In this document: piece by piece, positions 21,695-58,380 of the stretch
How the letters are laid out: the number at the start of each line of letters is the position of its first letter
Numbering within the stretch: the first letter of the stretch is position 1
Assembly: GCA_035546615.1 (NCBI GenBank)
Contig: DASZWM010000003.1
Location: forward strand, 32,001 to 96,000
Source: Minisyncoccota bacterium
GTDB lineage: Bacteria > Patescibacteriota > Minisyncoccia > Phycocordibacterales > SBAW01
Direction of reading: 5' to 3'
Length of the DNA stretch: 64,000 nt
The notes under the pieces: model-generated
What the model was told of the DNA's origin: nothing
Databases searched by the model: none
The model's input: the letters and a program-made list of their open reading frames with translations, nothing else
Made by a program: the position numbers and the translations under genes

Positions 21695-22105
21695 TTATCT
21701 GATGCGGATCCGGCGGAGGGCTTTGCGGGCTTTTTTGTAGTCCGGAATGGTCTCTTCGACCAGGGCCCAGAAGGCGGGGCTGTGGTTCATTTCCTTCAGG
21801 TGGCACAGCTCGTGGGTTACGACATATTCGGCCAGGCGCGGCGGCAAGAAAAGGAGGCGGTAGTTGAAGTTGAGGTTGCCGTGCTCCGAGCAGCTCCCCC
21901 ACCGCGAACGGCTGTTCTTTATGAATACCCGGCGCACGGCGTAGTCGTAGTGCGCGTTGAGGCGCGCGATGAGCGCATGGACAAGCGCGCGAGCCTCTTC
22001 CTTATACAGCTGGAACTTCCGCGAACTAGCCGCCGAAGCCGGGCGTCGTCTCCGTACCCGCCGCCGATATACGATTTTGTATCCAAACACCGAGGTATTG
22101 TACAA
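21695..22105 (-). CDS. YgjP-like metal-dependent hydrolase (DUF45/M48-like, HExxH)
   Basis: WGSCSEHGNLNFNYRLLFLPPRLAEYVVTHELCHLKEMNHSPAFW. TTG start, Arg-rich N-terminus. This is the last GC-rich gene before the island. Confidence 0.6.
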   Translation of the reverse strand: MYNTSVFGYKIVYRRRVRRRRPASAASSRKFQLYKEEARALVHALIARLNAHYDYAVRRVFIKNSRSRWGSCSEHGNLNFNYRLLFLPPRLAEYVVTHELCHLKEMNHSPAFWALVEETIPDYKKARKALRRIRIR

Positions 22106-22141
22106 CCTTACTTAATGGCAGGCTCAGATATAGATTTATAA

Positions 22142-22540
22142 CTACAAAATTGAGATAACTTTCTTAACGACGGAGTCTGAAGCACTCTTGAGTCGATGTT
22201 CCCATATTCTTAATACCTTCCAATTCATACTTTTTAATTGTTTATTAACCAATCTATCTCTTTTCTTATTTCTTTCTATTTTGTTAGTCCAATATGCGCG
22301 ATTTGTCTTTGGAACTCTACAGTGAGTCTTACATCCGTGCCAAAAACAAGAGTCAATGAAAATTGCTGTCTTAGAAACAGAAAAAACAATATCAGGTCTG
22401 CCTGGCAATTTTGCCACATGAGTTGTAAACTTTAGTTTACTTTTTTTCAGTTGCTTCTGAAAAGATTTTTCTATACCTGAATTTCTACTCTTAATGAGAC
22501 GCATTATTTCGCTGCGTCTTCCAGAAGATACATTGTCCAT
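22142..22540 (-). CDS. vsr: Very short patch repair endonuclease Vsr
   Basis: FIDSCFWHGC...P.TN..YW..KI..N..RD motifs. Confidence 0.9.
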   Translation of the reverse strand: MDNVSSGRRSEIMRLIKSRNSGIEKSFQKQLKKSKLKFTTHVAKLPGRPDIVFSVSKTAIFIDSCFWHGCKTHCRVPKTNRAYWTNKIERNKKRDRLVNKQLKSMNWKVLRIWEHRLKSASDSVVKKVISIL

Positions 22541-22544
22541 GCCT

Positions 22545-23612
22545 TTATTCTTCTATATCCCAACCTGTTGGAAGTGTGATTTTGGTATAGGCTCTTTCTT
22601 TGATAAAAGGGACAATCTCTGCGCTCGAAGGAAACTCTGCGTCAAATTCTCTCGTTAAATCACTTAACAAAGTGCCAGCAAGTCGTTCTCTATATTCTTT
22701 ACTGAGGCAAAGAGTATACCAGTCATGCAAATCTTTAAGAGTAATTATTCCTTGCACACGCTCAATAATCCCGAGCTGTTGTAGCAGGGCCTCAATAGGT
22801 TTCTTTTCTGCGTCTCGACAAACAATTACAATCCTGTCCGCTTCGATTCCCTCGACAATTCCTTCGGTTACTTCAGGAGTAAGTGTAAGGTGTTTTACCT
22901 GGATAGCTGTTCCAAAATTTGCCCACATATCTAATCCCCTATCCGCCGCATTCGTTACGCCAACTCTAAAAAGGGCTGCGGGCATAGCTACTTGAGTCTT
23001 TCTGGCATCTATGCCTAAAACCATTTTTATAAAACCTTCAAAATCAGTAAGTATTTCTTTGTCTTCATTTTTAATCGAAAGGGTGATTTCCGCTTTTAAT
23101 GCTCGTACAATAGCGGAAAAAAGAGCATGCACTGCTATTTCATATATTTTATCTGTGCTTCGTCTCAAGCCAGGACTTGATGTAAAAAGTTCCACTAATT
23201 CCATTATGGAAAAAGTGTCCACTGTTGACTGTTCGATATAGTCTCTTACCCGATGAACAGATAGTAACTTATTTTGTAAAGCTTTATAAATATAAGCCTC
23301 TACTCCGCCCTTACTTGTTGTATTTATTTTTCCTAACACTGCCAATAGTTGGGGCGGCATAGCATTAGGCTCAAAGATATTATCTTGGTACTTTGCGCTA
23401 GAAGTACTGCTCCTCCCAACAAGTAAGGTGGAGACTTCATCTCTCCAACGTTTAGAGACAGAGCGATAACTTTCTAGATCAGTTAGTTCTAGCTTTTTCT
23501 TAGTTCTATGATAGAAAAGTATCTCCGCTATCTGTATAGGTTTATAGAAGTGCACTCTGGCCTTCTTTATAACTGAATCCAGAGCCGCTTTTGCTTCTTC
23601 AGCCATTGACAT
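22545..23612 (-). CDS. Putative type II restriction endonuclease (family unassigned)
   Basis: The 355-aa ORF lies between the C5-MTase and vsr and overlaps the MTase stop by 14 nt. No family was identified by eye. Confidence 0.5.
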   Translation of the reverse strand: MSMAEEAKAALDSVIKKARVHFYKPIQIAEILFYHRTKKKLELTDLESYRSVSKRWRDEVSTLLVGRSSTSSAKYQDNIFEPNAMPPQLLAVLGKINTTSKGGVEAYIYKALQNKLLSVHRVRDYIEQSTVDTFSIMELVELFTSSPGLRRSTDKIYEIAVHALFSAIVRALKAEITLSIKNEDKEILTDFEGFIKMVLGIDARKTQVAMPAALFRVGVTNAADRGLDMWANFGTAIQVKHLTLTPEVTEGIVEGIEADRIVIVCRDAEKKPIEALLQQLGIIERVQGIITLKDLHDWYTLCLSKEYRERLAGTLLSDLTREFDAEFPSSAEIVPFIKERAYTKITLPTGWDIEE

Positions 23613-24621
23613 ACGCCCGTTCTACCATATTTATGTCTTTTCCGCTAAACAATTCAGTTTGTTCAATAAAAGGAACCGGGTCTTTCGACATTGCTTCAAC
23701 CATTGCGTGGGCCACTGCTTCCATCTGAGGAACCACTACAGCATTACCAGCTTGCTTCCGGATTTGCTGGTCAGCAACAACAAATTTATATGAATCGGGA
23801 AAACCCTGTAATCTAAACATCTCTCTAGGAGTCAGTCTTCTTTCTCCATTTACAATAAGATAGTTATATGAACCATTAGCCCTAAGAGCGCATGAATAAG
23901 CATTCACGCCTAGGTTTCCAGACTTATTTTCGTGCAAGATTAACGGACGAGAATGAAGTTCTTTGTGTTGTTCTTTTAATTGTCTCTGGACTTTCTGCAA
24001 CATATAATCGCTAAGAAAGTGTTTTTTATCGACCTCATTATCAGGCTCAAGGATGTCTTCAAGAGTTTTCTTTTTTCCCCTCCCTTTGGTAGGAAATTCA
24101 AAAGGGTAGTTTTCTCTAAAACCTACAATCATTATTCGCTCTCTCTTTTGCGGAACGCCAAAATCTAGACCATTTAAAACTTTAAAGTGCACAAAATAAC
24201 CTAGTTTTCTTAAACTATTTAGAATTACTGAAAACGTCCTTCCTTGATCATGATTGGTAAGTTGTTTTACATTTTCCAAAAATAGAGCTTTTGGTTTCTT
24301 TGCCTTTAGAATTCTCTCAACATCAAAAAACAACGTGCCTCTTGTTTCAGAGAAACCTTTCATATTCCCCATGATGCTAAAAGCTTGGCATGGAAAACCG
24401 CCTGTCAAAATATCATGGTCAGGCACATCTTTTGCAACTATTTTCGTTATATCTCCATCTGGCTGGTCGCCGAAATGATTCTTATACATCTTCTGCGCAG
24501 CTTCATCCCATTCTGATGTAAAAACACATTTACCTCCTGCCGCTTCAAAACCAAGTCTAATGCCTCCAATTCCTGCAAAGAGATCGATAAAAGTAAATTT
24601 ATTCTTATTCGTTGGAGCCAT
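23599..24621 (-). CDS. dcm: DNA (cytosine-5)-methyltransferase
   Basis: Motif I FIDLFAGIGG, motif IV GGFPCQAFS, motif VI ENV, motif VIII QRRERI-like. Confidence 0.95.
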   Translation of the reverse strand: MAPTNKNKFTFIDLFAGIGGIRLGFEAAGGKCVFTSEWDEAAQKMYKNHFGDQPDGDITKIVAKDVPDHDILTGGFPCQAFSIMGNMKGFSETRGTLFFDVERILKAKKPKALFLENVKQLTNHDQGRTFSVILNSLRKLGYFVHFKVLNGLDFGVPQKRERIMIVGFRENYPFEFPTKGRGKKKTLEDILEPDNEVDKKHFLSDYMLQKVQRQLKEQHKELHSRPLILHENKSGNLGVNAYSCALRANGSYNYLIVNGERRLTPREMFRLQGFPDSYKFVVADQQIRKQAGNAVVVPQMEAVAHAMVEAMSKDPVPFIEQTELFSGKDINMVERAYVNG

Positions 24622-24851
24622 AGAGCAATATATTTTAACACCTATTTTAAGCTTGCTATATTTTTAATAATAGCACTGAAATCTATATTTATACACAATA
24701 TACACAAGTCTTGGGGATAACTTTAGTGAGGGCCGTTTTTGGTCCAGGATAGCCGTATCCGCCAGCCGATAAAAATAGAGTAAGGGGGTAAAGATCAGCA
24801 ATCGTGGGATGAGCGTGTCTAATAGTCACCTAAGGATTTATAGCCATAAGG

Positions 24852-25193
24852 CTATTGTGGCAAACCCTTAATTTTGTTTCTGAAGAAATTAAATCGCATC
24901 TTAGCATAGTCCCAAAGAAAAGAGCAGAACGACTTATTTGGATGTCTTTTTATTTCACGCAAGTTCTCGAAAGCATAATTAAGTATATCTATAAATAATA
25001 ACCCTGGTACAACACCCAATGCGAATATATACCAATCAGAAAAACGTGTTTTTAACAAACTGTAAGTCGCATTTACTGCAATTCCAAGAACTACCGCAAG
25101 CGTCGCACCGAGTATCACAAATGCCCACTGTATTTGTAGACTTCTTTCCTCTTGTAAATCACCCTTGTTCATGGCGAATATATCTAATAACAA
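24852..25193 (-). CDS. Small two-TM membrane protein (candidate effector of the Ubl/E1 module)
   Basis: Two hydrophobic helices (WAFVILGATLAVVLGIAV; WYIFALGVVPGLLFIDIL). TTG at 25193 or ATG at 25172. It lies 8 nt after the upstream stop. Confidence 0.5.
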   Translation of the reverse strand: MLLDIFAMNKGDLQEERSLQIQWAFVILGATLAVVLGIAVNATYSLLKTRFSDWYIFALGVVPGLLFIDILNYAFENLREIKRHPNKSFCSFLWDYAKMRFNFFRNKIKGLPQ

Positions 25194-25201
25194 GTAAAAA
25201 A

Positions 25202-25612
25202 TTATTCGAAGAAGCTACGCAATTGGACTAATATCCAGTTTCCAAATCGTCGCCACCATGACAGGGAGGAATGAATAAAGTATGCATCCTTGATGGTATC
25301 GTCATATTCTCGCCCGTGGCGTATCTGTTCTCGAGTCATCTTCGACGCCCAAATCACTTGATTTTCAATAATCCAATAATGTGACTGACAAGGATGATTC
25401 CAGTTTCCTATTGAAGGACGTAGCGAGACCACCCCCTGCCAATCAACTAGCGTATATTCGGTCTTACGGAGAGGGGTAACGATTTTAGTGCCACAACTGC
25501 AACAGCACAAATGGCTCGCGGTTCCGAAACGTCGTGAGATATATAGAACACCACTCTCAAGCTCTCTTGGTATGAACTCAACATATTCAGGACGCACCAA
25601 CTCTGTCTTCAT
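25202..25612 (-). CDS. Cys-rich Zn-ribbon-like protein (DUF6527-like, recalled)
   Basis: HLCCCSCGTK...NHPCQSH cluster. The ATG at 25612 overlaps the E1-like gene stop (ATGA-type coupling). Confidence 0.5.
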   Translation of the reverse strand: MKTELVRPEYVEFIPRELESGVLYISRRFGTASHLCCCSCGTKIVTPLRKTEYTLVDWQGVVSLRPSIGNWNHPCQSHYWIIENQVIWASKMTREQIRHGREYDDTIKDAYFIHSSLSWWRRFGNWILVQLRSFFE

Positions 25613-26808
25613 ATACAATCCTCTTTTGTAAGGGCGTGGGTCGCAATCGTGTACAGCGAATGACGTTCTCGCACATCATCAGCATAAAAACCACACAATT
25701 GCTTCCATTTTCCCACAGCCATGGCAGCATTTAGCATATTTAGGTCCGCAACCTGCATATTACGGTACACCGCCTCGGCCGGCACTTTTGCAAATGAAAC
25801 AACTTCCGCAATATGTCCATGATGGTCGGGTGTTCCAACTGTAAAGCGACACTGTCCGCGCAGAGACGCCTGATTATCGAGTGCCAAGTCTATTCCAACG
25901 TCTATGAACGGCACACCAAGAGCAATAAGGCCATTAAGTATGTTCTTCCGGCTCTCTCCGTCGTCGATAGCAACAAACACGAAGTCGAACCCGGACAGCT
26001 CGTGGAGATGCGCGTCCTGGACATAGTAGGGATGACGCTTCAAGCCCTTGTGTATACGTTCGTATATACCACTGAACCAATCCACTTTTAGTGGATTGTT
26101 AAGCTCCTGCTTCATCGGAGCACCCGGTGCTCTAAACGCGTTGTGGAGTTCGAACGTATCCCCATCGAAAATGTGGATTTCTTTCACCGGCGTCTTAGCA
26201 ACAAGGTCGAGAATATACGAACCAGTACCACCTAGTCCTATAATCGCCACCCGACTTGCAAGGAGTTTCGCCGTGGCCGCTCCAATACCAGCACGGGTTG
26301 TTGCCATATCAGGATAATGGAATGCGAGTTCCTGAGCTTCGACTACCGCCGGTACTGGTTTTTCACTTCGTGGATCGCAAGTCCGATCAATTGCTTGAGC
26401 TTCGTGCCAAATCAGACGAACATATGTCCAGATTTTTTCGTAGTAGTCGGCATACTTGCGCTTATCAGCGTGCACACGCGAGAAGGCGACAGTCGTCTTA
26501 ATCCCATCGCCCTTATCCTCCTCAGCGTTGTTCGAAATCATCTCCGTCATTAGTTGACCATCCGCGTTGTGCGGGGGTTCTCCAATCCACCAACACTGAT
26601 GGTTGGAACATGGATTCACTGTCTTTCCGGCCGCATCAATTTCAAGTGGGCAATAGAGAATTCCAGGCACTATTTTGCCTTCAGAGGTAACAGCAGGAAT
26701 TCCCTCAATTAAAAGATGAGAGGCAGTCCCTTGAATGACCCGGAGACGAAAACCTTCCGCCTCCAACTTTGCCAAATCGGCATTATGACTTATCCGTATT
26801 TCTGACAT
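25609..26808 (-). CDS. E1-like ThiF/MoeB-fold enzyme with ~165-aa N-terminal domain of unknown fold
   Basis: VAIIGLGGTGSYILDLVAKTPVKEIHIFDGDTFELHNAFR is a ThiF nucleotide-binding motif. The N-terminal domain has conserved-looking C/H residues (YCPLE, NPCSNHQCWW, PPHN). Confidence 0.8.
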   Translation of the reverse strand: MSEIRISHNADLAKLEAEGFRLRVIQGTASHLLIEGIPAVTSEGKIVPGILYCPLEIDAAGKTVNPCSNHQCWWIGEPPHNADGQLMTEMISNNAEEDKGDGIKTTVAFSRVHADKRKYADYYEKIWTYVRLIWHEAQAIDRTCDPRSEKPVPAVVEAQELAFHYPDMATTRAGIGAATAKLLASRVAIIGLGGTGSYILDLVAKTPVKEIHIFDGDTFELHNAFRAPGAPMKQELNNPLKVDWFSGIYERIHKGLKRHPYYVQDAHLHELSGFDFVFVAIDDGESRKNILNGLIALGVPFIDVGIDLALDNQASLRGQCRFTVGTPDHHGHIAEVVSFAKVPAEAVYRNMQVADLNMLNAAMAVGKWKQLCGFYADDVRERHSLYTIATHALTKEDCI

Positions 26809-27040
26809 CGAAGTTCATATGATCGACCACATCTACACTTTGGCCCCGGCGAAGCGATCCTTCGTGTCCACCTGGCTTAGTCCATGAAACGCTGTAGCGA
26901 ACATCGCCTCCGAACGGACCAGTTGGGAATGCGAGCTTGATGACTTGCTCGTAGCTAATATCGTGTTCACCCCACTTCTCTTGAATACCGTTCACAACAA
27001 TGCTTATGGTGTGTCCATGCCCTTTATTATCGTCTGCCAT
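26783..27040 (-). CDS. Multiubiquitin-like beta-grasp protein (85 aa, no C-terminal GG)
   Basis: ISIVVNG...ISYEQVIKLAFP...RYSVSW...GQSVDVVDHMNFDVR matches, from memory, the multiubiquitin domain pattern of prokaryotic E1/E2 operons. It overlaps the E1-like gene start by 26 nt. Confidence 0.5.
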   Translation of the reverse strand: MADDNKGHGHTISIVVNGIQEKWGEHDISYEQVIKLAFPTGPFGGDVRYSVSWTKPGGHEGSLRRGQSVDVVDHMNFDVRNTDKS

Positions 27041-27224
27041 ATAATTTTAATTGTCGGCTTTTTAATTTAAGTGCGGCACCGGTCGACCGCACTTGTATCG
27101 TACACCCATTTCTGATACCCTTGCAAGGTAACTAGATGTATCAAATGTTACCTAAAGTACCATATTTGTTATATCTGATACCTGTTGTTACAACCTATAA
27201 CAAGTTACGCACAGATTTCAAATC

Positions 27225-27584
27225 ATGAGAAAATCATCCGCTACAATAAACAATGAAAGCAGATCCACAGAGCTTGAAATCCGGAAAGAGATTGGCAGAC
27301 GTATCGCTGAAATGCGTAGCAAACTGGGGCTTACAGCTCGCCTTGTTGCCAAAGAACTTCATGTCTCACGCGAAGCCATTACTCACATTGAAACAGGGCG
27401 AAACAATATATCTGCCGTATCGCTGTGGGAATTGGCGACTCTCTTCCATTGTGATATTGCTGATTTTTTCCCTGATATTCCTAATGGATATTCTTTAACT
27501 AGGGTCGATATTAATAAAGTAGCACAAATGAGTGGAAAGACAGGGGCGGCATGGGCTGAAAAGATTTTTGGGAAAAAGAAATAA
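27225..27584 (+). CDS. XRE-family HTH transcriptional regulator (CapH/ImmR-like)
   Basis: HTH_3 signature IGRRIAEMRSKLGLTARLVAKELHVSREAITHIETGRNNIS. Confidence 0.85.
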   Translation: MRKSSATINNESRSTELEIRKEIGRRIAEMRSKLGLTARLVAKELHVSREAITHIETGRNNISAVSLWELATLFHCDIADFFPDIPNGYSLTRVDINKVAQMSGKTGAAWAEKIFGKKK

Positions 27585-27588
27585 ATAT

Positions 27589-28083
27589 ATGATGTCAGAA
27601 AGAATTGAGAAAAAAGCGGAGGAAGTCTTAAGCGCACTGAATGTTAAGTCAATACCTATCTCTGTTGAAGAAATCGCGAATCAATTAAAGATCAAGATAG
27701 GAAGAGCACCTAGTAGTGAATTTTCTGGAATGTTGATTCGAAAAGATGGTCGAGCACTTATGGGTATAAATAACAGTGAAGGCACTGCGAGACAACGATT
27801 CACTATTGCGCATGAACTTGGGCATTATTTCTTACATCCACAAAATGATACTTTTGTAGACTATAGGCAGAACGAAAAAGAACCAAGAAATCATAGAGAA
27901 CGAGAGGCTGATATGTTTGCAGCAGCACTCTTAATGCCTAGGAAAGAAGTAACAAAAGACTTTCAGAAAATTGTTAGGAAAGGATTTTCAGAAATTGAAC
28001 TTCACAAACTGGCAGGAAAATATGAAGTGAGCGACAAAGCAATGAGATTTAGGTTAGTAAACTTAAATATGCTATTAGGTTAA
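27589..28083 (+). CDS. ImmA/IrrE family Zn-metallopeptidase (CapP/ImmA-like)
   Basis: HELGHYFLH HExxH motif in the COG2856 fold context. It lies immediately downstream of the XRE gene. Confidence 0.85.
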   Translation: MMSERIEKKAEEVLSALNVKSIPISVEEIANQLKIKIGRAPSSEFSGMLIRKDGRALMGINNSEGTARQRFTIAHELGHYFLHPQNDTFVDYRQNEKEPRNHREREADMFAAALLMPRKEVTKDFQKIVRKGFSEIELHKLAGKYEVSDKAMRFRLVNLNMLLG

Positions 28084-28087
28084 GATT

Positions 28088-28348
28088 TTATTGTCTACTC
28101 CCTTGTGATCCTAATCTATCCGTAAAAGGTCCCTCACGATGGGCCGCCGGATCTACATCCTTTTTTGTAATAACCTGGGGAAAGCGGGTATTTTCTTCAA
28201 TCTGCTCTAGTAACGTGACTATTCTGTTCAATTTCCAGTACCAGGTAAGGATTTCCCTGATCAGGAGGAATATCAGAGCGCCCACGCATAGGACAAAAAC
28301 GATATTTGGTAGCTGGGACCAGTAATATTGAAATAAGGGTTGAAGCAT
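28088..28348 (-). CDS. Small membrane protein (one TM helix), downstream partner of AbrB-like gene
   Basis: IVFVLCVGALIFLLI helix. Coordinates are from the track. Confidence 0.4.
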   Translation of the reverse strand: MLQPLFQYYWSQLPNIVFVLCVGALIFLLIREILTWYWKLNRIVTLLEQIEENTRFPQVITKKDVDPAAHREGPFTDRLGSQGSRQ

Positions 28349-31986: not shown

Positions 31987-32520
31987 TTGTTCACCCAAGG
32001 CATATACGTACCGCACCGGGAGTCCGGACCGGACAGGATATGGGCCGGCAAGCCCGTGCTCCTGTGCGGAGCGCTGGAGCTCTCCCGCACCGTGGAGGAA
32101 AATCTGGCCCAGATCCGCACCCAGGCTATCGACATGGAAGCCGTTCGCCCGTTCGCGGGCGGGAAGAAGCGCTACGCCGTCGAGTTCCTGATGCTCGGGC
32201 AGAAGGCGGCCTTCTACGGCGAAGACAGCCTGCGCAGGCAGATACACAAGAGCCGGCTGGCCCAGTGCAAGGGCAAGACGATAGCGCTGTCCCTCGGCTC
32301 CCCGGGCCGCGTGCGGGTCATCGCGCGAGGCGTGCTTGAATCAGTGGAGGGCGAGTACGTTACCGTCTCGAGAGGCATCCTCTCGCGGGTGAACGGGCAT
32401 CGCATCAGCAGGACCCCGAAGCCGGAGGAGCCGAAGCGCGGCCGCGGCGACCTGTTCTTCAAGCTCCGCAAGGTCGTGGACATTTACCTGCCGGAACCCC
32501 CCGCCGAAGCGCCGGCTTAG
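31987..32520 (+). CDS. Hypothetical protein (TTG start)
   Basis: A GAGGAGGA SD lies 8 nt before the TTG at 31987. The track ORF is extended upstream into the SanA gene. Confidence 0.4.
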   Translation: MFTQGIYVPHRESGPDRIWAGKPVLLCGALELSRTVEENLAQIRTQAIDMEAVRPFAGGKKRYAVEFLMLGQKAAFYGEDSLRRQIHKSRLAQCKGKTIALSLGSPGRVRVIARGVLESVEGEYVTVSRGILSRVNGHRISRTPKPEEPKRGRGDLFFKLRKVVDIYLPEPPAEAPA

Positions 32521-57091: not shown

Positions 57092-57113
57092 AAAGGAAGT
57101 CAAAGAAAATCTA

Positions 57114-57554
57114 TCATATAAGCAAACGGGCGGCAATCGCTCTTTTACTTATTGCGCGCCCTTTTCTGCCGTTTCCTTTATTGAGATTAGCATAAGTAGG
57201 ACTTAATGCGTCACAGTTCGGACAAACTAGTCTAAGATTTTCTTCTGTATTATTCTGCCAATTACCATCGATATGGTCCGCAACTAACGGCACAAGTCCG
57301 GTAACCGGATTAACTTCCGACCAACCGCACATACAACACTTATCGCCAAACTTTTCTCGCAGATAACGCTTGACCGGCCTTGAGACTATCCCCGTTACCT
57401 TTAGTCCTGTTATCTTTCCCTCTTTCCACTTTTTGATATAAGATTCGTGCTGCAATTGTGCCTGGCACTTGTTACTGCAATAGGTGTATCCAGCGCGAGC
57501 AGTCTCTGTACCACACAGAACACACGCGCTACGTGGTTTTTTAGGCATCGACAT
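57114..57554 (-). CDS. HNH endonuclease
   Basis: N-terminal Zn-ribbon (CVLCG...C..C) and an HNH core DHIDGNWQNNTEENLRLVCPNCD. ATG at 57554 or 57548 (the track has TTG at 57575). Confidence 0.8.
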   Translation of the reverse strand: MSMPKKPRSACVLCGTETARAGYTYCSNKCQAQLQHESYIKKWKEGKITGLKVTGIVSRPVKRYLREKFGDKCCMCGWSEVNPVTGLVPLVADHIDGNWQNNTEENLRLVCPNCDALSPTYANLNKGNGRKGRAISKRAIAARLLI

Positions 57555-57627
57555 ACCTACAAGAAGTATATGCAAACTGCTTATCGGTGTAAATAATTAC
57601 ATCGGAAGCAATTTACAGCATATTTTG

Positions 57628-57880
57628 AGCCGAAGGCCGGAATCGAACCGGCGACCTACTCCTTCGCTTACACCTCTTTTTTCTTTATAAGAGGGCTAGA
57701 CTGTATCTTTCTCCTGCGAACAGGAGACCCTTGTCAGTCGTTCGAGCGTCTAGGACGCTACGGTCTGGACCAGTCATGTGGCCTTTAACCGTTATTCGGG
57801 ATTCATTCCGACGTTACCGTCGGGATGGGCGGGGTCTGCGACCCACCATGGAGTTGCTCTACCATCTGAGCTACTTCGGC
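57628..57880 (-). tRNA. tRNA-Thr (anticodon GGT) interrupted by a ~180-nt intervening sequence in the anticodon loop
   Basis: The 5' half GCCGAAGTAGCTCAGATGGTAGAGCAACTCCATGGT lies at 57880..57845. The 3' half AAGGAGTAGGTCGCCGGTTCGATTCCGGCCTTCGGCT lies at 57664..57628. The acceptor, anticodon and T stems all pair across the insertion. Confidence 0.55.
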
Positions 57881-58017
57881 TTATTGTACTGAGTCCCGAC
57901 GCTTTGGTCGGGAGGCCGACTGACACGTCGGCCCTACTTCGGCTTATACAAGAACATCTATCAACTTACAATAAAAACGGCAAAATTGCCAAAAAATATA
58001 GGCGGTATACTGGTGGC

Positions 58018-58380
58018 ATGAACGAATTTTTCAGGAAGGTGGCGCACGGGGCAAGCAGGACCATGGGCTCGCCGTGGGCGTTCCTTATCGCGCTCAGCAT
58101 CGTGGCGCTGTGGGCCGGCACCGGATGGCTGTTCGACTTTTCCAACACCTGGCAGCTGGTCATCAATACCGGCACGACCATCGTGACGTTCCTTATGGTA
58201 TTCCTTATCCAGAACACGCAGAACCGCGACGCGCACGCAACACACCTGAAGCTGGACGAGCTTATTAAGGCGCTCGGCCCCGCAGACAATGAGCTTATCG
58301 ATGTGGAGGACGAGACGGACGAGCGGATAAGCGCGCTGGAGGCGGAACTGAAAAAATTCAAGGACGAGCACAAGCACTAA
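58018..58380 (+). CDS. Low-affinity iron permease (Fet4-like) family protein
   Basis: [33 protein letters not shown]...IQNTQNRD pattern. The track ORF is extended upstream across the tRNA. Confidence 0.55.

Follow-up and report, generated by a model that had tools for sequence, protein, structure and literature searches.

With the program tFind, the settings known for bacterial tRNA group I introns were extended from 4 to 21 (Williams 2020, 10.1101/2020.01.27.920355). The introns that interrupt tRNA-Thr(GGU) genes of Patescibacteria between tRNA positions 36 and 37 are found by the same program (PMC13011429; 10.1101/2020.01.27.920355) and were reported by Nakagawa et al. from three complete genomes as "divergent group I introns" (PMC13011429), a term which that paper credits to Castelle et al. 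2018. They sit on long branches inside the IA clade, are undetectable with the Rfam model RF00028, and are called by ARAGORN, for 2/3 of them, as tRNA-Arg(GCG) with an intron at 34/35 (PMC13011429). Our subject is a stretch of 64 kilobases (kb) of contig DASZWM010000003.1 (forward-strand positions 32,001 to 96,000; hereafter the window, numbered from its first nucleotide), in which a compact group I intron of 180 nucleotides (nt) splits the anticodon loop of a minus-strand tRNA-Thr(GGU) gene (57880..57628), between tRNA positions 36 and 37. The intron belongs to the "divergent" tRNA-Thr(GGU) 36/37 group I family of Patescibacteria and is not a new kind of element. The gene comprises two exons and the intron between them:

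57845..57880, minus strand: 5' exon, 36 nt, tRNA positions 1-36, ending ...ACUCC-AU-GGU with the anticodon GGU; recognized from the spliced sequence, which is called as tRNA-Thr(ggt), and from intronless orthologues
57665..57844, minus strand: intron, 180 nt, GGGUCGCAGACCC...GGUGUAAGCG, between positions 36 and 37; 197.9 bits against the family model R1, in whose training alignment it is included
57628..57664, minus strand: 3' exon, 37 nt, tRNA positions 37-73 (A37 A38, the 3' strand of the anticodon stem, variable loop, T arm, 3' strand of the acceptor stem and discriminator U)

The 5' exon (57880..57845) reads GCCGAAG-UA-GCUC-AGAUGGUA-GAGC-A-ACUCC-AU-GGU and the 3' exon (57664..57628) AA-GGAGU-AGGUC-GCCGG-UUCGAUU-CCGGC-CUUCGGC-U; joined, they form a 73-nt sequence that ARAGORN calls tRNA-Thr(ggt), with a perfect cloverleaf. 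A sequence-only reading of this DNA had proposed two halves of a tRNA-Thr(GGT) gene about 180 nt apart, with the stems pairing across the gap and the intervening sequence in the anticodon loop; the gap proves to be exactly 180 nt, the spliced tRNA is canonical, and the site is 36/37. When the 253-nt precursor is folded without constraints, the acceptor, D, anticodon and T arms form across the intron (-101.7 kcal/mol, z = -5.06; 0/200 shuffles as good), and the same fold yields most of the intron helices of the group I model given below. The anticodon-stem pairs that span the intron are paired in 100% of 100 homologues, with compensatory changes at 5/5 pairs.

The closest relatives by CTP synthase, the loci L121 (89% identity) and L122 (82%), keep the gene order iron permease, tRNA-Thr(GGU), tRNA-Thr(CGU), prfB, ftsE, ftsX and pyrG. 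Both carry tRNA-Thr(GGU) at the same syntenic position without the intron; these orthologues read ...CAUGGUAAGG..., and the splice junction is thereby fixed uniquely between UGGU and AA.

ARAGORN in intron mode (-i) names the split gene differently, as "tRNA-Arg(gcg) i(35,180)", that is, a tRNA-Arg(GCG) with an intron after position 34. This identity is scarcely credible. Its boundary would place a G ahead of the 5' splice site and end the intron in A, whereas the 36/37 boundary fits the U/G rule of group I introns; the tRNA body is that of a tRNA-Thr, sharing 82-92% identity with the halves of its neighbour tRNA-Thr(CGU); the gene is orthologous to the intronless tRNA-Thr(GGU) of L121 and L122; and the same miscall is documented for the Thr family (PMC13011429, Table 1).

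The search for members of the intron family took one genome per species and looked for the D arm and anticodon of tRNA-Thr where the next base is not A37. This exon-anchored scan returned at least 120 loci, and in about 100 of those listed the same site is occupied by an insert of 176-266 nt. These inserts start like the window intron (GGGUCGCA...) and end in ...GGUGUAAGCG, with AA and the anticodon stem's 3' strand following directly; the terminal G was already seen in the first extraction of the family, whose criteria did not demand a G. An alignment of 100 homologous sequences, the window intron included (A1), contains the near-invariant blocks UGAAUCCCGAAUAACGGUUAA, AAGACCGUGGCG, CGCCCGAACGACUGACAAGGG, AAGAUACAGUCUAGCCCUC and GAGGUGUAAGCG, with variable hairpins between them. 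The covariance model R1 was built from A1 and scores the window intron, as part of its training set, at E 1e-58. The window intron has the family consensus base at 88/88 columns conserved at 90% or more, and its nearest relative among the loci listed is L104, in an Adlerbacteria genome (75% identity).

Carriers among the loci listed are mostly Patescibacteria; the few others are Niastella populi, metagenome-assembled genomes (MAGs) of Gammaproteobacteria, and a MAG of Bdellovibrionales. The Niastella populi carrier (strain CCTCC AB 208238, contig NZ_LWBP01000002.1; L037, 5227-5424) is a cultured isolate of the Bacteroidota, outside Patescibacteria and experimentally tractable, and has a 181-nt family member in its tRNA-Thr(GGU).

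The 180 nt of the intron are fully accounted for by the helices of a group I fold, and no endonuclease open reading frame (ORF) was found inside it. The helices (P) and joining segments (J), with their behaviour in A1, are:

57828..57847, minus strand: P1, exon G34-G35-U36 paired with intron G15-C16-C17 in reverse, with a U36•G15 wobble at the splice site; the UG, GC and GC pairs are invariant in 100/100
within 57828..57847, minus strand: P1 extension, hairpin GGGUC-GCA-GACCC; covaries (GGG/CCC against UAU/AUA)
57804..57827, minus strand: P2, 10 pairs with one C·A mismatch and the GNRA loop GUAA at 57814-57817; changes on both sides at 10/10 pairs
57798..57800, minus strand: 5' strand of P3, CCC, with its partner GGG at 57728-57730; 99.3% paired, 3/3 pairs with compensatory variants (CUC/GAG, CCU/AGG, UCC/GGA)
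57745..57792, minus strand: P4-P5-P6, made up of P4 ACGGU/ACCGU, J4/5 UAAA, P5 GGCCA/UGGUC and P6 AGCGUC-CUA-GACGCU; P4 invariant, P5 and P6 covarying
57735..57741, minus strand: J6/7 and 5' strand of P7, A-C-GACUG, with a bulged C beside the G116-C156 pair; invariant, aligning to GACU of P7 in the td intron of phage T4
57728..57730, minus strand: 3' strand of P3, GGG, which makes the P3/P7 pseudoknot; placed by the pairing in A1
57710..57727, minus strand: P8, UCUCCUG-UUCG-CAGGAGA, a continuous helix with CC:GG, the form paired with GYRA loops in L2; covaries
57698..57709, minus strand: J8/7 and 3' strand of P7, AAGAUA and CAGUCU; nearly invariant, aligning to td GAGAUAUAGUCU
57673..57696, minus strand: J7/9 and P9, with GC at 57695-57696 as the 5' half of P9.0 and the P9 hairpin CCUCUU-AUAAAGAAAA-AAGAGG; P9 covaries
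57665..57667, minus strand: 3' end of the intron, G-C-G, made up of omega-2 and omega-1 (the 3' half of P9.0) and omegaG at 57665; the last G invariant, P9.0 covarying

Measured against this model, 90.2% of the cells of A1 are paired, compared with 33-44% when the partners are slid, and the covariation score is 0.45 against 0.08-0.11 (0/500 shuffles reach 0.45). Double changes occur in P2, P3, P5, P6, P8, P9 and the anticodon stem, while P1, P4 and P7 are invariant. P7 consists of GACUG/CAGUC plus an A-U pair across the bulged C. One P6 pair is A-U in the window and G-C in most of the family, a compensated change. The U•G pair at the 5' splice site and the terminal G are both present in 100/100 sequences; both pairs of P9.0 form in 92/100, in the combinations GC/GC, GU/AC, AC/GU and AU/AU. 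From what is known of group I introns, the G116-C156 pair would correspond to the guanosine-binding pair.

The contact between L2 and P8 exists in two states, with no exceptions seen. All 44 GAAA loops in L2, together with 4 of the form AAAA or UAAA, accompany a P8 with an internal loop resembling the 11-nt receptor (GC-UAA...UAUG-C), and 52/52 loops of the form GUAA, GCAA, GCGA, GUGA or GGAA accompany an uninterrupted P8 helix, so that A1 divides 48 to 52. The window intron is in the second state, with GUAA in L2 (57814-57817) and UCUCCUG/CAGGAGA in P8 (57710-57727). Three hairpins singled out by the sequence-only reading find their places in the fold: GGGUC/GACCC as the P1 extension, CCGACG-GUAA-CGUCGG as P2 and CUCCUG-UUCG-CAGGAG as P8. 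The helix model, P9.0, the L2-P8 switch, the 3-base-pair (bp) P3 and the comparison of close relatives with and without the intron were worked out in this analysis; the first four of these were not found in PMC13011429 or in 10.1101/2020.01.27.920355.

A further covariation links the P1 loop (intron bases 6-7, 57838-57839) with the dinucleotide before the terminal G (57666-57667). Mutual information is 0.59 and 0.52, and both pairs form in 70/100 sequences of A1. The P1 loop dinucleotide is usually identical to the J7/9 dinucleotide of P9.0, so the two would compete for one partner. This pairing of the P1 loop with the 3' end may stand in for the missing P10.

Homology to canonical group I introns was examined by searching 7.3 kb of DNA of a T4-like phage, which holds the td and nrdB introns, with R1 on both strands and with filters off. 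The top three matches were the 5' half of td (21.1 bits, E 6e-6), the 5' half of nrdB (20.1 bits, E 1e-5) and the 3' half of td (9.4 bits, E 0.02); the E-values are rough, and the ranking and register are clear. In the 5' half the register joins the splice-site U, P2 with its GNRA loop, J3/4, P4 and P5 to both phage introns; in the 3' half it joins P7, P8, J8/7 and P9 to td. Because the U•G pair, omegaG, P9.0 and the P3/P7 pseudoknot are accompanied by td and nrdB matches in register, we class the window element, on its sequence, as a group I intron. Its nearest relatives among those tested are of the IA type, in agreement with the tree in PMC13011429. The sequence-only reading had suggested a group I-like element, and the U36•G pair, the terminal G, the covarying core in about 100 homologues and the td/nrdB match bear it out; there is no need for its alternative, a different self-splicing or processed element.

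An intron of another type, either protein-spliced with a bulge-helix-bulge or belonging to group II, was considered only because the Rfam group I model was silent; no evidence in its favour was found, and we give it next to no weight. The site is 36/37 and not the canonical 37/38 of bulge-helix-bulge introns (the bulge-helix-bulge motif itself was not formally searched for). No Rfam group II family matched, either in a scan of the whole window at gathering scores or at E <= 10 in the slice 57400-58100, and 180 nt is far below group II size. The complete covarying group I core and the homology to the td and nrdB introns also speak against it.

The gene is hard to see with standard tools. It went unreported by ARAGORN with default settings and, at the gathering score over the whole window, by the Rfam tRNA model. 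RF00028 (Intron_gpI) had no match at its gathering score over the whole window, nor at E <= 10 in the 701-nt slice 57400-58100, where the sole Rfam match was a spurious sub-threshold tRNA alignment that took intron bases for the 5' half. The RF00028 and group II searches, both proposed by the sequence-only reading, thus came back empty. Since PMC13011429 reports this very blind spot for the Thr 36/37 introns, the silence of RF00028 bears on the detectability of the intron and not on its identity; in this, as in its miscall by ARAGORN as Arg(GCG), the window intron behaves as published for its family. A BLAST comparison with phage genomes matched the exons to tRNA genes only and left the intron unmatched. 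Because default tRNA finders and Rfam miss the gene and the ARAGORN intron mode misnames it, an annotation pipeline would count tRNA-Thr(GGU), which decodes ACC, as missing from the genome, a known completeness problem in Patescibacteria.

The neighbouring genes are bacterial housekeeping genes (prfB, ftsE, ftsX, pyrG and gatA, with a low-affinity iron permease). A look-up of the exact CTP synthase protein of the window found no record of it; it shares 89-73% identity with proteins from sources that, where named, are Candidatus Paceibacterota, Adlerbacteria, Kaiserbacteria and "Patescibacteria group"; because the best-matching named CTP synthases come from Patescibacteria, the host is assigned to that group, the candidate phyla radiation (CPR). 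Seven neighbouring genes use the Thr codons ACC 54, ACG 48, ACA 4 and ACU 3 times. A GGU anticodon is needed, since ACC is the commonest of these, and since relatives keep an intronless gene at this position the intron must be removed for the tRNA gene to work. The tRNA-Thr(GGU) gene is functionally required.

This bears directly on whether the locus might be a disrupted tRNA pseudogene, with an insertion that is no longer removed and a function supplied from elsewhere. The analysis covers one 64-kb window, and a dead 5' fragment of a tRNA-Thr lies directly upstream, which means that the locus has been rearranged. Even so, a pseudogene is very improbable: the exons form a perfect cloverleaf, the intron has zero deviations at the 88 conserved columns and, in P6, an A-U pair that is a compensated change, Thr codons nearby are most often ACC, and relatives have tRNA-Thr(GGU) at exactly this position.

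We therefore return to a working gene. Two-step, guanosine-initiated splicing is the best-supported mechanism, and with the anatomy, conservation, covariation and homology to canonical group I introns observed as described above, we infer that the intron RNA would catalyse its own removal. The precursor would fold so that exon G34-G35-U36 pairs with the intron guide GCC in P1, with the U36•G wobble at the splice site, and the tRNA arms would form around the intron as it folds; the compact fold would be braced by the GUAA tetraloop of L2 docking on the CC:GG helix of P8. An external guanosine in the P7 pocket would attack the bond after U36. OmegaG, positioned by the 2-bp P9.0, would then displace the guanosine from the pocket, and the free 3'-OH of U36 would attack after omegaG, joining U36 to A37 and restoring the loop A-U-G-G-U-A-A.

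Several points weigh against this account. P3 has only 3 bp and a P10 with the 3' exon is not evident; to be efficient, splicing might then depend on a protein or on high Mg2+. P1, P4 and P7 are invariant (always pairable), and covariation is uninformative on them. The Rfam group I model is silent even at E <= 10. Published splicing assays concern the Asn and Asp 35/36 introns (PMC13011429), and none was found for the Thr family. Within the scope of a 64-kb window, a second intact tRNA-Thr(GGU) elsewhere in the genome is possible.

Some of these points favour an intron that is group I by descent but not self-splicing, its removal needing a protein cofactor or chaperone or being inefficient, and possibly regulatory. 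The 3-bp P3 and the lack of a visible P10 are joined here by a length of 180 nt, below the 184-894 nt range of surveyed bacterial tRNA group I introns (PMC13011429), and splicing of the Thr family is here a prediction from sequence. We consider such dependence unlikely: the elements of the catalytic core are invariant across about 100 genomes, the tetraloop-receptor brace is kept by two-state covariation, which fits a self-folding RNA, and related tRNA introns of Patescibacteria self-splice in vitro (PMC13011429). Taken together, the observations are best read as a functional tRNA-Thr(GGU) gene of Patescibacteria (Paceibacterota/Adlerbacteria-like) with a group I intron of the divergent 36/37 family, spliced by the standard pathway, a reading to which we assign a probability of roughly 0.87.

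The DNA upstream of the gene carries traces of its history. An exact 14-nt direct repeat, CTACTTCGGCTTAT, occurs at 57871-57884 and at 57934-57947 (spacing 63), with two exact 7-bp hairpins between the copies (57894-57933); the sequence-only reading had noted the repeat 63 nt upstream and the perfect hairpins, and both are exact. Read on the minus strand, the 14-mer ATAAGCCGAAGTAG appears at 57947..57934 and again at the start of the tRNA:

57885-57947, minus strand: broken 5' fragment of a tRNA-Thr, made up of ATAA-GCCGAAGUAG, a 40-nt double hairpin and CUCAGUACA

The upstream copy is followed by the 40-nt double hairpin, by CUCAGU, in which the D arm would continue, and last by the functional tRNA gene. 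The upstream copy falls, in an alignment with L121 and L122, at the start of the L121 tRNA, a place where L122 carries a different insert. A metagenomic locus, L171, repeats the layout, with GCCGATGTAG, the double hairpin, CTCAG, a different and complete intronless tRNA-Thr(GGU), an HNH endonuclease gene and tRNA-Thr(CGU). The double hairpin is a small repeat, with similar copies after tRNA-Thr(CGU) in L134, after gatA in L121 and in L171. Because the copy lies at the tRNA start of L121 and L171 has the same layout, the upstream repeat is a broken tRNA-Thr 5' fragment with a small repeat element, a rearrangement scar and not part of the splicing system. A role in the mechanism of the intron, or a simple target-site duplication, was rejected for the 14-nt repeat, since the upstream copy equals the L121 tRNA start and the hairpins recur at unrelated intergenic sites (L134, L121).

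Such duplications recur across the family. Exact duplicates of the tRNA 5' end, of at least 10 nt and within 220 nt upstream, accompany 18/99 split genes and 7/322 other tRNAs of the same loci. Seven loci (L028, L047, L119, L080, L069, L015 and L024) have an upstream 5' half of an intronless tRNA-Thr(GGU), 156-197 nt before the split tRNA; these halves run exactly through ...UGGUAA and then diverge, which puts the breakpoint two bases past the intron site.

Other small repeats lie near split genes. After the 3' end of the split tRNA, the loci L002, L020, L108, L075, L116, L095 and L077 have a conserved, hairpin-rich insert of 110-250 nt, absent from the window, that ends in a duplicate of the last ~15 nt of the tRNA and includes part of the T arm in inverted orientation; it has the look of a small element targeting the 3' end of tRNA-Thr(GGU). 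Upstream of split tRNAs, a structured spacer of ~100 nt between 13-nt duplicates is found in L020 (965-1060) and L041 (1831-1927 and 2874-2964). The spacer is 94-96% identical between the two loci and, with two copies in L041, behaves as a small repeated element, similar to miniature inverted-repeat transposable elements. In the window, a direct repeat with 13/14 matches (57103-57116 and 57950-57963; AAGAAAATCTATCA and AAGAACATCTATCA) brackets 847 bp in which the HNH gene, the split tRNA and the upstream fragment all lie. The repeat may be due to chance; by a rough estimate, ~0.1-0.3 of its kind would be expected by chance in the region.

The HNH gene is separate from the tRNA gene. It follows the split tRNA after a gap of 73 nt and precedes tRNA-Thr(CGU) by 22 nt:

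57554..57114, minus strand: free-standing HNH endonuclease gene, 146 codons, 45% guanine-plus-cytosine (GC); resembles phage HNH endonuclease families (E ~1e-14 to 1e-15)

It is absent from L121 and L122, and its protein had no match among PDB sequences. Of about 100 split genes, 14 have a homologue of 60-75% identity downstream, and in the 13 loci that reach far enough the gene ends just before tRNA-Thr(CGU). A metagenome scan seeded on the HNH protein recovered 80 loci, most of which have the family (60-75% identical) immediately upstream of tRNA-Thr(CGU); more distant homologues (~50-57% identical) stand beside tRNA-Thr(UGU) or other tRNA genes. The gene that precedes it varies and can be tRNA-Gly(CCC) or a tRNA-Thr(GGU) that is either intact (at least 7 loci) or split (3 loci). 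Because the HNH gene keeps its place beside tRNA-Thr(CGU) whatever lies upstream, it tracks that tRNA and not the intron. Among the split-gene loci it had no association with the upstream 5'-end duplicates. Collaborative homing of the intron by the adjacent endonuclease was therefore rejected as the default reading, as the gene follows tRNA-Thr(CGU) and has no tie to the duplicates. In its setting, the gene resembles the free-standing homing endonucleases of phage tRNA clusters.

A promoter-like site on the minus strand lies between the split tRNA and the HNH gene (57565-57593; TTTACA, 17 nt, TATACT; 10/12 matches), which hints that the HNH gene has its own promoter.

How the intron came to this gene may be considered tentatively. 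The intron-bearing tRNA gene and the low-GC HNH gene may have arrived as DNA, overwriting a resident intronless gene of which the fragment is the scar, and the family may spread by endonuclease-triggered, sometimes one-sided recombination without an endonuclease gene of its own. The idea is based on four observations: L121 and L122 are without the intron and the HNH gene, and one of them also without the fragment; L171 has the same fragment and hairpins before a different tRNA-Thr(GGU), and the same HNH gene; 5'-end duplicates favour split genes in the proportion given above; and the seven upstream 5' halves break two bases past the intron site. Counting against it, the HNH family stands beside tRNA-Thr(CGU) with or without the intron, and the HNH gene has no association with the upstream duplicates. 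We regard this scenario as doubtful.

Elsewhere in the window, where the host DNA is ~60% GC, a probable acquired defence island of 40-44% GC, at ~22000-28100, encodes a HaeII-type restriction endonuclease, a C5 cytosine methylase, a DUF6791-ThiF protein and an IrrE/M78 peptidase.

With 176-266 nt among the loci listed, the intron family is among the most compact natural group I introns; a literature search on the size of the smallest natural group I intron gave nothing usable. It should be a useful minimal ribozyme model, with a 3-bp P3, a clean two-state tetraloop/receptor switch and about 100 aligned natural variants.

Among known systems, the td and nrdB introns of phage T4 (IA2) align with the window intron in register at P1 with its splice-site U, P2 with a GNRA loop, J3/4, P4, P5, P7, P8, J8/7 AGAUAUAGUC and P9. 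They differ in lying in protein-coding genes, in their length of ~600-1000 nt and in carrying endonuclease ORFs, and overall similarity is low (9-21 bits). The tRNA-Ile(CAU) intron of Azoarcus sp. BH72 is likened by description (PMC13168695): it too is very small, lies in the anticodon loop of a bacterial tRNA gene and is held by tetraloop-receptor contacts involving L2 and P8. It is an IC3 intron of 205 nt and differs in subgroup, tRNA and site; the window intron is shorter still (180 nt), with a 3-bp P3.

Closer are the Asn(GUU) and Asp(GUC) 35/36 introns of Patescibacteria, of type IA, which occur in the same phylum, interrupt the anticodon loop and fall in the same IA clade as the Thr introns (PMC13011429). 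They differ from the window intron in their site, in being detectable with RF00028, in that some encode homing endonucleases, and in that self-splicing in vitro has been demonstrated for them (PMC13011429). Closest of all are the tRNA-Thr(GGU) 36/37 introns of Patescibacteria, for which the published work has no helix-by-helix description. Nothing essential sets the window intron apart from that family, with which it shares host phylum, tRNA, insertion site, size class, the failure of RF00028 and the ARAGORN miscall.

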